Positions 48,344-51,701 of a stretch of 64,000 nt of DNA are shown here, piece after piece. A program made the position numbers and the translations under genes. The number at the start of each line of letters is the position of its first letter. Position 1 is the stretch's first letter. Source of the stretch: Bacilli bacterium (GTDB lineage: Bacteria; Bacillota_I; Bacilli_A; RF39; UBA660); assembly GCA_016283075.1 (NCBI GenBank), contig JAEEMF010000026.1, positions 5,270-69,269 on the forward strand, written 5' to 3'. Below the pieces are notes generated by a model, which was given only the letters and a program-made list of their open reading frames with translations, was not told the DNA's origin and did no database searches.

Positions 48344-49326
48344 ACTTAAGAGGTAGAGATTTTTTAACTCTTCTAGATTTTACTCCAGAAGAAATAAATC
48401 ATCTTTTAAAAGTAGCACTTGATTTAAAAAAGAAAAAAAGAAATGGAAGAAAGCATGAATACCTAAAAGGTAAACAAGTTGCTTTAATCTTTGAAAAAGA
48501 TTCAACTAGAACTAGATGTGCTTTTGAAGCAGGAGCAAATGATTTAGGTATGCATGCTACTTATCTAGGACCTACTGGTAGTCAATTAGGTAAAAAAGAA
48601 ACTATAGAAGATACTGCAAGAGTACTTGATAAAATGTATGATGGTATAGAATATCGTGGTTTTGATCAAGATACAGTAGAAGCTCTTGCTAAATACTCTA
48701 AAGTTCCTGTTTGGAATGGTCTTACTAATGAATACCATCCAACACAAATGCTTGCAGATGTTATGACAGTACTAGAAGAGTTTGGTTCCTTAAAAGGTAA
48801 AAAGTTAGTATTTTGCGGAGATGCTAGAAATAATGTAGGAAACTCACTTATGATAGTATGTTCTAAACTTGGTATGAACTTTGCTTGCTGCGCTCCTAAA
48901 GAGCTTTGGCCAAACGAAGTACTAGTTGATAGATGTAAAGAAATTTGTAAGGAAACAGGAGCAACTATTGAAATGACAGAAGACATTATGGAAGGTACTA
49001 AAGGAGCAGATGCTCTTTATACTGATGTATGGGTTTCAATGGGTGAACCTATGGAGTTATGGGAAGAAAGAATTAAACTTTTAAAACCATATCAAATTAA
49101 TATGGATGTAATGAAGAATGCTAAAAAAACAGCTATCTTCTTACACTGCTTACCATCTTTCCACAATAATGAAACTACTATTGGAAAAGATATAGAAGAA
49201 AAATTTGGATTAAAAGAAATGGAAGTTACTGATGAAGTATTTGAGTCTAGTCAATCAAGAGTATTCGAAGAAGCAGAAAATAGACTTCATACTATTAAAG
49301 CAGTAATGTTGGAGACGTTAAAATGA
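48337..49326 (+). CDS. arcB: Ornithine carbamoyltransferase (catabolic)
   Basis: 'STRTR' carbamoyl-phosphate motif and 'HCLP' motif. 329 aa. Placed between arcA and arcC. Confidence 0.9.
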
Positions 49327-51701
49327 GTAAATTAGTTATTGCCTTAGGCGGAAATGCTCTTGGTAAAAATGCTAAAGAGCAACATGATTTACTTGATGAA
49401 ACTGCTAAACATATAGTTGATTTAGTAGAGTCAGGTAATGATGTAGTAATAACTCATGGTAATGGACCACAAGTTGGTATGATATATAATGACATGAAGA
49501 AAGATAATATGCCATTTGCTGAAAGCGGTGCCATGAGTCAAGGTTATATTGGATATCAATTACAACAAGCTTTAAAAGATGAACTTAATAGAAGAAAAAT
49601 TGATAAAGATGTTGCAACTGTAGTAACACAAGTACTAGTAGATGCTAAAGATAAAGCATTTGAAAATCCAACTAAACCTATTGGTGAATTCTTAACTAAA
49701 GAAGAAGCTGATGAACTTCATAAAAAGAATCACTATATTTATAAAGAAGATGCAGGAAGAGGTTATAGAAGAGTAGTAGCATCTCCTAAACCACTTGAAA
49801 TAATAGAACTTGATACAATTAAAAACTTACTTGAACAAGGTACTATTGTTATTGCTTGTGGTGGAGGAGGAGTTCCAGTCGTAAAGACTAGAACCGAAGG
49901 TTATGAAGGAATAGATGCTGTAATAGATAAAGATAGAACAAGTGCTTTACTTGCTAAAAGTATTATGGCTGATAAACTTCTTATACTTACTACTGTAGAT
50001 AAAGTATCTATTAATTATAGAAAAGAAAATGAAGAAAGATTATCAGAACTTTCTATATCAGATGCTAGAGTATATATAAGAAATGGACACTTTGAAGAAG
50101 GAAGTATGCTTCCTAAAATAGAGTCTGCTATGGACTTTGTTAAATACTCTGGTAATGAAGCAATTATCTCTAGTTTAGATAAAGCAGAAGCTGCTTTAAA
50201 AGGTAAAACTGGTACTAGAATATTTAGACCAGAAATAAAAGAAGATAAACCTAAGAGAAGAGTATCATTCTCACTAAGTGCATTTACAATTATAATGCTT
50301 TTAATATTTATACTTGCAGCTATAACTCACTTTTTACCAAAAGCACAATTTGATATATATGGTGAGTTATTAAATGGATCAGGTGTTAAACCTGCAAGTT
50401 TATCTGAAACACTTTTAGCACCAATCAAAGGATTTGGTGATGCAATTGATATTTGTGTATTCGTTTTAATACTAGGAGCATTCTTAAAAGTAGTAAATGC
50501 TACTAATGCTATTGAAACAGGAATTCAAGTATTAATTAAGAAATTAAAAGGAAAAGAACTAATGTTAATAGCAATTCTTATGGCAGTATTCTCAATAGGA
50601 GGTACTACTTACGGAATGCTAGAAGAAACAGTTGGTTTCTATGCCTTACTTGCAGCTACAATGGTTATGGCAGGTATGGATACAATAGTATCATCTGCTG
50701 TAGTACTTCTAGGTGCTGGATCTGGTGTACTTGGTTCAACGGTAAATCCATTTGCCGTAGGAGTAGCAATAGATGCTGCTAAAAGCGTAGGAATAGAAGT
50801 TAACCAAGGAGTAATCATTGGTATAGGAGCAATCCTATGGATTACTACATTATTAATAAGTATATTCTTTGTAACAAGATATGCTAAAAAAGTTATTAAG
50901 AAAAAAGGTTCTACAATTCTAAGTTTACAAGAACAAAGAAATATGGAAGCTACTTATGGAGATAATGGTAATAAGAAAGAAGCTAAACTTACTGGAAAAC
51001 AAAAAGTAACTTTAATACTATTTGGTTTAACATTCTTAGTAATGATAGTATCATTTATACCATGGGAAGACTTTGGAGTAACATTATTTGCTAACTCTAA
51101 GTTTATTGGATTATCTTGGCTTGCCGGTTGTCCTTTAGGACAGTGGTACTTCCAAGAAGCAACACTTTGGTTCTTAATAGCAACAATAATAATTGCTATT
51201 ATTAATAGAATGAAAGAAAAAGAAATCGTTGACCTACTTGTTGATGGAGCAGATGATATGGTAGGAGTTATTTTAATAATCGCTCTTGCTAGAGGCGCAT
51301 CAGTACTTATGAGTGTAACTCATTTAGATAACTATATTATCTATAATGCAGCAGAAGCATTAAAACATGTACCAGCTGTAGTATTTGCACCACTTAACTA
51401 TATACTTCATGTAGGTCTATCTGTACTAGTTCCTTCATCATCAGGACTTGCAACACTTTCAGCTCCAATCATTGCACCACTTGCACATGAAATAGGATAT
51501 AGTGTTGAAACTACTTTAATGGAAATGGTTGCTGCTAATGGATTTGTAAATTTATTTACTCCAACATGTGGTGCAATCATGGGAGGACTAGCCCTTGCTA
51601 AAGTAGAATACTCTACATGGCTTAAATGGGTATTTAAAGTATTAGTAGTAATATTTATAGTTAATATATTACTTCTTACTTTAGGAATGATATTCTTATA
51701 A
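49323..51701 (+). CDS. arcC: Carbamate kinase (aa 1-~310) fused in-frame to a YfcC-family (putative arginine/ornithine-pathway) membrane transporter (aa ~315-792)
   Basis: N-terminus '[11 protein letters not shown]', '[10 protein letters not shown]' and the C-terminus of the CK domain '...GTRI'. This runs without a stop into '[16 protein letters not shown]...' and ~10 further TM helices typical of YfcC/DcuC-like carriers. It is one continuous 792-codon ORF. Confidence 0.7.

Follow-up and report, generated by a model that had tools for sequence, protein, structure and literature searches.

How do an enzyme and a membrane carrier come to be encoded by one uninterrupted reading frame, and is the product really one protein? 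The question is raised by a stretch of 64,000 nt from a Bacilli bacterium (GTDB order RF39; assembly GCA_016283075.1, contig JAEEMF010000026.1), which we refer to as the window and which has a G+C content of 27%. Within an arginine deiminase (ADI) operon of this window, an open reading frame (ORF) at 49323..51701 on the forward strand runs from a carbamate kinase (CK, gene arcC) into a polytopic carrier of the DcuC/YfcC family. Our analysis indicates that this gene, denoted here arcC::arcE, very probably encodes a bifunctional ArcC::ArcE membrane protein, which originated once through a fusion by small deletion and in which both activities are retained.

The ORF is uninterrupted from its ATG to its TAA and comprises 792 codons, corresponding to a protein of 792 amino acids and about 87 kDa (mass estimated from length). 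An earlier note on this DNA, made from the letters of the sequence, had described a single 792-codon frame leading from a CK into a YfcC-type transporter without a stop at the junction; this was reproduced, and the junction peptide is identical to the one quoted there. The Pfam domain AA_kinase comprises residues 3-282 of the fusion protein, and the NCBIfam arcC model TIGR00746 residues 3-301, with 367.5 bits (cutoff 358.25) and a match to positions 2-308 of its 309. The Pfam domain DcuC (PF03606) follows at residues 320-787 with 268 bits and profile positions 4-458 of 461, i.e. as a full-length domain. This nearly complete coverage of the profiles implies that both halves are complete and in one frame; as far as the profiles tell, the fusion protein is two complete proteins joined almost end to end.

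The same 792-amino-acid protein (P0001) is found on two contigs of 57,243 and 72,564 bp in NCBI/ENA assemblies, and two more members of its 90% cluster, again of 792 amino acids, lie on contigs of 91,255 and 4,220 bp, which brings the number of contigs to at least four. In addition, more than 120 distinct 90%-identity clusters, drawn from NCBI, ENA, Logan, JGI and MGnify assemblies, match at 75-76% identity and 100% query coverage, have a length of 793-796 amino acids and contain both Pfam domains. A sibling cluster comprises 430 proteins; the 15 of them that were listed all have a length of 794 amino acids. A locus survey using one genome per GTDB species yielded 64 loci. In 17 other GTDB species the fusion is a single ORF of 793-801 amino acids without internal stops; in 42 GTDB species, at 59-70% identity, arcC is followed by arcE as two adjacent ORFs.

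These more distant relatives, which carry two genes at the same position, are the reason to consider a frameshift or a miscalled stop that masks an ordinary pair of arcC and arcE, an alternative which the earlier note had raised. However, the same or a nearly identical ORF occurs in independent assemblies, and its intact presence in the 17 further species and the more than 120 clusters rules out such a sequencing frameshift. Neither an alternative-frame ORF nor a frameshift was detected at the junction, the other two frames being stop-rich across 50100-50400, and homopolymers (A/T of 5 or more, G/C of 4 or more) are absent from 50151-50320. Moreover, stop, ribosome-binding sequence and start have all gone, which is more than the loss of a stop alone, the length of the linker is conserved, and the fused genes are monophyletic and under purifying selection (see below). 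We consider the chance of an artefact to be negligible. It had also been envisaged that close relatives might uniformly have two genes with a ribosome-binding site. This is the case at 59-70% identity, where the genes are separate and the site is present, but not at 72-76% identity, where they are fused, and this is the pattern of a clade-specific evolved fusion. Fused forms that share one origin and are maintained, next to species with separate, adjacent genes, constitute a 'Rosetta stone' gene fusion in the usual sense. By these comparisons, the fusion is genuine and inherited and is not a sequencing error.

How the two genes became one can be read from the junctions. In the unfused loci arcC has its own stop codon, a GGAGG or AAGGGAG Shine-Dalgarno (SD) sequence lies in or just past the 3' end of arcC, and the ATG or GTG of arcE is only a few nt away. 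Judged by this layout, the unfused junction is a case of classic translational coupling and the ancestral arrangement. In nine unfused loci arcC and arcE are in the same frame with a single stop between them, and in L013 and L023 (both around 6925-6940) the arcC stop (TAG or TAA) directly abuts an in-frame GTG start of arcE, so that one point mutation would fuse the genes. The junction has neither stop nor SD nor start in the window gene and in the 17 fused species. The spacing between conserved junction anchors is 48 nt in the window and in 16 of the 17 fused loci, with 54 nt in L001; in L036 and L028, the closest of the unfused lineages, it is 65 nt. The net difference of 17 nt is the length of the L036 block AGGAGGATTAAATAATG, which contains SD, stop and start, and its removal restores the frame. 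From these junction sequences we infer that the loss of the 17-nt block was the fusion event.

In neighbour-joining trees of the CK, of the transporter and of their concatenation, the 18 fused sequences form one clade with no unfused sequence inside, and the sister of this clade is the unfused L036, a metagenome-assembled genome (MAG) from goat jejunum. Sister MAGs of the L036/L028 type are 61% identical to the CK half and 70% identical to the ArcE half of the window protein. The monophyly in all three trees indicates a single origin of the fusion. Between fused species dS is 0.8-1.4, i.e. near saturation, and dN is 0.11-0.25 in both halves; the resulting dN/dS of about 0.1-0.27 points to purifying selection on both halves. 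The fusion would thus go back to a single event, dating from the ancestor of a clade of uncultured, low-GC Bacilli/Mycoplasmatota-like bacteria of the gut; the MAGs of the relatives are recorded in the NCBI taxonomy as uncultured gut or rumen 'Bacilli', 'Tenericutes', 'Mollicutes' or Mycoplasmatota incertae sedis. The precursor would have been a pair of adjacent, coupled genes with the arcC stop, the SD and the arcE ATG within about 20 nt, from which a small deletion (net 17 nt when compared with the closest unfused sister) took away SD, stop and start, thereby placing arcE in the frame of arcC.

The solved CKs 1e19, 4axs and 1b7b align end to end with the kinase half, in which the family motifs including GSMLPK are intact, and the residues of the nucleotide/phosphoryl-binding motifs are invariant in 64 fused homologues. 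The CK domain of the AF2 model matches solved CKs at TM-scores of 0.75-0.83 (Foldseek). Solved CKs stop one residue past the GTxI/V motif, at a point equivalent to residue ~302 of the fusion protein, whose chain runs on for another 490 residues, unlike a stand-alone soluble CK of about 310 amino acids. The CK half is encoded directly 3' of arcA and arcB with overlapping stop and start codons and is thus a member of an ADI cluster. By its motifs and its genetic context, the kinase half is the carbamate kinase ArcC (EC 2.7.2.2), predicted to convert carbamoyl phosphate and ADP to ATP, NH3 and CO2.

The linker which connects the two halves has a constant length in the fused clade and has kept its K/E-rich character; its sequence varies, with a mean pairwise identity of 65% and a minimum of 20%. 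In the full-length AF2 model pLDDT is below 50 at residues 304-316. Residue 4 of the Streptococcus pneumoniae ArcE aligns with residue 311 of the fusion protein, and according to the hydropathy profile the first transmembrane segment (TM1) comprises residues 316-334. By this alignment, the KPKRR at the C-terminal end of the linker is the former K/R-rich cytoplasmic N-tail of ArcE.

ArcE (TC 2.A.118, IT superfamily) is the electroneutral arginine/ornithine exchanger of ADI clusters without ArcD, as established by experiments in S. pneumoniae; it also carries citrulline, and it is recognised as the sole secondary carrier in an arcABC cluster without ArcD (PMC5300872). The transporter half shares 34% identity with the S. 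pneumoniae ArcE over 375 columns (E = 2e-64) and is collinear with it from the N-terminus, the comparison sequence (strain D39, A0A0H2ZNX2) being a machine-read partial copy of 373 amino acids taken from the supplement of PMC11106768. In the 64-kb window the transporter half is the only secondary carrier in the arc operon, which is the context by which ArcE is recognised. Domain and homology scans of the window detected no APC-type ArcD, no second CK and no second ArcE, and the remaining polytopic ORFs are limited to a MacB/FtsX permease, an ATP-binding cassette (ABC) fusion of substrate-binding protein and permease, and a histidine kinase. Two earlier suggestions are in line with these results: the absence of an ArcD-type antiporter holds for the operon and for the whole window, and the view of the YfcC-like moiety as an arginine/ornithine exchanger is supported by the homology to a characterised family. 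Citrulline would probably be exchanged by the ArcE half as well. Two other assignments were rejected. With 169.8 bits against a cutoff of 500 for NCBIfam NF008611, the carrier belongs to the same family as E. coli YfcC and is not its orthologue, and the fusion protein has no AA_permease/APC match in Pfam or NCBIfam scans that would point to an ArcD of the APC superfamily.

A substrate other than arginine/ornithine, be it citrulline/ornithine only, another basic amino acid or, following the name of the Pfam family, a C4-dicarboxylate, would be in line with the limited identity to the characterised ArcE, with the score far under the E. coli YfcC equivalog cutoff and with the transport of citrulline by ArcE itself (PMC5300872). 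In addition, a polar-amino-acid ABC importer is always found beside the operon and could import arginine. On the other hand, a sole secondary carrier in an arcABC operon with arcA is precisely what identifies ArcE (PMC5300872), and 56 of the 59 related loci share the order arcA-arcB-arcC-arcE; of the other three, L057 and L058 have no arcC, and L049 lies on a contig that starts at arcC and has an enlarged transporter ORF, which did not pass the coverage filter. Moreover, the export of ornithine without energy cost needs an exchange. We therefore regard another substrate as unlikely, and the transporter half is best supported as an ArcE-type arginine/ornithine exchanger.

A search of PDB sequences with the transporter half gave no match even at E <= 1. 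For an AF2 model of the transporter alone (pLDDT 65) all significant Foldseek matches are of the IT type, with TM-scores of 0.36-0.55 only; MtrF and YdaH are the best, followed by VcINDY, NaCT, Pho90, TRAP and ArsB. The full-length model (pLDDT 67, pTM 0.47) yielded Foldseek matches to the kinase domain only. The input alignments for both models consisted of fused-clade sequences only and were shallow (92% mean column identity). In the hydropathy scan a K/R-rich flank precedes TM1, and the loop at residues 518-561 contains 12 K+R. Because of these two features an N-in topology is suggested, with the kinase on the cytoplasmic face, which is the compartment of its substrates. The protein can thus be pictured as a cytoplasmic CK whose tether to TM1 of an ArcE-type exchanger would be a flexible, charged stretch of about 13 residues.

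Even a genuine ORF might give rise to two separate proteins, either by internal initiation or by proteolysis of the linker, in which case the fusion would be a device of gene expression. The linker is predicted to be flexible and could be accessible to proteases, and a sigma-70-like pair of hexamers (TTCTCA, 17 nt, TATAAT) is located at 50268-50296, right where the carrier half begins. However, a transcript from this site would lose TM1, and promoter-like matches in the region are at chance level for this AT-rich DNA (31 found against 26.5 expected from shuffled DNA). No in-frame start with an SD was found in codons 285-345 of any of the 18 fused genes, eight of which have no ATG, GTG or TTG there at all; likewise, neither a conserved in-frame start codon nor an SD-like motif was found near the junction of these 18 genes. 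The only candidate start in the window gene, M325, is a non-conserved position within TM1. In contrast, the GGAG in front of the fusion gene's own ATG is conserved in 18 of 18 genes. Since an SD-preceded in-frame start is absent from all these junctions, an independent translation of the carrier half appears very unlikely, and two separate products are, taken together, highly improbable.

What could be gained by a bifunctional ArcC::ArcE protein? The fusion would enforce a 1:1 synthesis of kinase and exchanger and would localise the generation of ATP at the membrane. Catabolic ornithine carbamoyltransferase (OTC) produces ornithine, the substrate of ArcE, and carbamoyl phosphate, the substrate of CK; thermodynamically, the reaction is unfavourable in this catabolic direction. 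As the two products of OTC are the substrates of the two halves, both sinks would be in one place and, provided that OTC associates with the fusion protein, could pull its reaction. This co-localisation of sinks is an attractive, if speculative, proposal. It can be extended to a membrane anchor for an ADI metabolon, in which trimeric OTC, and perhaps ADI, would dock onto the tethered CK, ornithine would leave via ArcE and carbamoyl phosphate would pass to CK, so that OTC is pulled and exchange is coupled to ATP synthesis; the exchanger might even be gated allosterically by the kinase, depending on the adenylate or carbamoyl-phosphate state of the latter. We put this forward tentatively and regard such a metabolon as rather doubtful.

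A direct channelling of substrates between the CK and the transporter domain, the 'metabolic channelling' of the earlier note, is a different matter. Both functions belong to one pathway and one operon, and fusions of enzymes of carbamoyl-phosphate pathways do exist (OTC-CK and AllH-CK, see below). However, CK handles carbamoyl phosphate, ADP, ATP and carbamate, and ArcE arginine, ornithine and citrulline (PMC5300872), so the two share no metabolite, and the coupling would need OTC, the linking enzyme, which has remained a separate gene outside the fusion. Channelling is thus not supported, and we consider it quite unlikely.

A more serious alternative is that the fusion is a neutral, frozen accident, i.e. 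that the domains work independently and without advantage and that re-splitting is mutationally hard. The precursor state is only one small deletion or, as in L013 and L023 with their stop and in-frame GTG, one point mutation away from a fusion, the sequence of the linker is poorly conserved, and the fusion is found only once among thousands of arcC-arcE neighbours, which does not suggest that it has been selected repeatedly. Against this, the length and the charge character of the linker were kept while synonymous sites became saturated, and in gut metagenomes the fused clade is both abundant and diverse, neither of which is decisive. We consider neutrality a real possibility, with somewhat less than an even chance of being correct.

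Several points weigh against our interpretation of a single-origin, bifunctional and maintained fusion. The full-length polypeptide and the retained activities are deduced here from gene sequences. The neighbour-joining trees are without bootstrap support, the S. pneumoniae ArcE used for comparison was a partial copy read by machine from a PDF, and the AF2 models are of mediocre quality, so that they give no reliable domain interface or oligomer geometry. The N-in topology depends on the positive-inside rule and on crude hydropathy, both of which are weak guides for the hairpin-containing carriers of the IT superfamily. A second, stand-alone arcC may be present elsewhere in the genomes, since the search covered the 64-kb window. 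Finally, the persistence of the fusion could reflect a reversal that is hard to achieve, because stop, SD and start are needed together, instead of a benefit.

To see how widespread the architecture is, 1.84 billion representatives of 50%-identity clusters were searched with HMMER, which returned 9,434 relatives. P0121, with 796 amino acids, is the only one of these representatives which spans both domains; the other top matches are stand-alone carriers of about 480 or stand-alone kinases of about 310 amino acids. An independent fusion at about 40% identity would score about 500 bits and rank among the first few, and the architecture therefore appears to be confined to one clade. The arrangement is indeed as rare as had been supposed, amounting to one 50%-identity cluster. 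Three transporters with N-terminal extensions of 100-180 amino acids (P0187, P0205 and P0217) were considered as further fusions and rejected, as they contain no extra domain and merely have divergent N-termini. As separate genes, arcC and a YfcC-type gene are often found side by side, whichever comes first, e.g. YfcC followed by arcC on an Aerococcus plasmid.

In the searchable literature we found neither a covalent fusion of enzyme and exchanger in the ADI pathway nor anything relevant on the ADI pathway in RF39-like lineages. ArcC and ArcE are both known families; what is new is their clade-specific fusion into an enzyme-exchanger protein of the ADI pathway. In public databases the whole fusion protein of 794-795 amino acids is annotated as 'carbamate kinase' only. 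The transporter is thereby hidden, and a metabolic reconstruction of this abundant lineage of the gut would fail to include an arginine/ornithine exchanger.

The features of the operon are compiled in the table. The 3' hairpin overlaps the stop codon of the fusion gene and ends a three-cistron arcA-arcB-arcC::arcE unit with the fusion gene in last position. The overlap between arcA and arcB is 7 nt, and that between arcB and the fusion gene is 4 nt (ATGA). An Rfam scan of the window for leaders, riboswitches and rRNA gave nothing at the gathering threshold.

Table. Positions of the arc operon features in the 64-kb window.
Feature	Position	Strand	Basis and remarks
Terminator-like hairpin	46975-46996		Closes the gene upstream of the arc operon
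Promoter-like site 5' of arcA	47006..47033	+	TTTACT, 16 nt, TATAAT, TG-extended -10; only a 10/12 consensus match
arcA, arginine deiminase, 422 aa from ATG	47075..48343	+	Pfam ADI PF02274, 401 bits, profile 2-377 of 377
arcB, catabolic ornithine carbamoyltransferase, 329 aa	48337..49326	+	Pfam OTCace_N and OTCace
arcC::arcE fusion gene	49323..51701	+	792 codons and TAA stop; GGAG Shine-Dalgarno 5' of ATG
Carbamate kinase domain, residues 1-302	49323..50228	+	TIGR00746; predicted cytoplasmic
Linker, residues 303-315 (13 residues)	50229..50267	+	K/E-rich; junction alignment
Predicted ArcE-type exchanger domain (DcuC/YfcC family, TC 2.A.118), residues 316-792	50268..51698	+	PF03606; ArcE alignment; hydropathy
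Intrinsic-terminator-like hairpin	51700..51721	+	9-bp stem followed by T-run

The start of arcA is ambiguous. Besides the ATG at 47075 there is a GTG at 47096, seven codons later, which would give a protein of 415 amino acids, is preceded by AAGGGTG and was chosen in the public gene call of an identical contig. Upstream of the operon, an ORF of 108 amino acids without a Pfam match (45566-45892) overlaps by 4 nt an ORF of 350 amino acids (45889-46941), which has an N-terminal Cro/C1-type helix-turn-helix domain (HTH_3) and may be a regulator or a module of the mobile-element type. On the 3' side the operon is followed by the polar-amino-acid ABC importer, in which SBP_bac_3 is fused to BPD_transp_1 (51760-53196), and by its ATPase (53183-53908). 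The pair and the arc operon are linked in the whole family; in the fused clade the pair is located downstream, whereas most unfused relatives have it upstream of arcA, and thus an operon rearrangement accompanies the fusion clade.

Some of the surveyed loci show further variation. In L057 (592-7275) and L058 (595-7275) the order is ABC-ATPase, arcA, OTC, arcA, OTC, arcE, with no carbamate kinase in the locus; arcA and OTC are duplicated in tandem, and the second arcA copy is only 53% identical. L029 (2581-3498) and L059 (2573-3490) contain a second, divergent CK (49-50% identity) upstream of arcA besides the arcC beside arcE. In L049, a MAG of an 'uncultured Mycoplasma sp.', the ArcE-type ORF after arcC (967-2886) has about 640 amino acids, with an apparent insertion of about 170 amino acids relative to the carrier of the window.

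The fusion is an unusually clean case of gene fusion via the loss of a translational-coupling junction, as precursor states with abutting or overlapping stop and start codons are still extant. Together with its close unfused sister, the fused form constitutes a natural experiment on ADI enzymes that work at the membrane beside the exchanger. In synthetic vesicles, the regeneration of ATP by the ADI pathway is limited by the exchanger (PMC11106768), and a single-gene module of kinase and exchanger could be of use for this purpose.

The closest known systems are the S. pneumoniae arcABC-arcE cluster (Noens & Lolkema 2016, PMC5300872) and the L036/L028 loci, which have the same families, operon order and pathway. 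In these, however, arcC and arcE are two cistrons with stop, SD and ATG, whereas the window has one predicted polypeptide with a linker of 13 residues; the ArcE paper mentions no fusion (PMC5300872). ArcD (APC superfamily, TC 2.A.3.2) has the same role in the ADI pathway as that assigned to the ArcE half (PMC5300872) but is unrelated in fold and family; the window protein is without an APC/AA_permease match, and its model matches carriers of the IT superfamily. The best structural matches to the model of the transporter half, the AbgT carriers MtrF and YdaH and the DASS carriers VcINDY and NaCT (Foldseek E = 2e-7 to 1e-4), are consistent with the published placement of ArcE in the IT superfamily. 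Their sequence identity is, however, only 12-17%, the similarity comes from a model of modest confidence, and their substrates differ.

Among the relatives, P0221 and P0244 consist of AllH (a subunit of oxamate carbamoyltransferase) and AA_kinase, and P0226, which may be truncated at its N-terminus, of OTCace and AA_kinase. Like the window protein, these AllH-CK and OTC-CK fusions join CK to a component of a catabolic pathway that yields carbamoyl phosphate. They are, however, soluble, have the partner at the N-terminus and share carbamoyl phosphate between their domains, which makes channelling plausible; the window protein has a polytopic transporter as its C-terminal partner, and its two halves have no metabolite in common. 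A soluble enzyme on the cytoplasmic end of a secondary carrier, as proposed here, is also found in other enzyme-transporter fusions or 'transport metabolons', such as SulP anion transporters fused to carbonic anhydrase. In that type of fusion the enzyme acts on the transported substrate, whereas in the window protein the enzyme would act on a different product of the same pathway.

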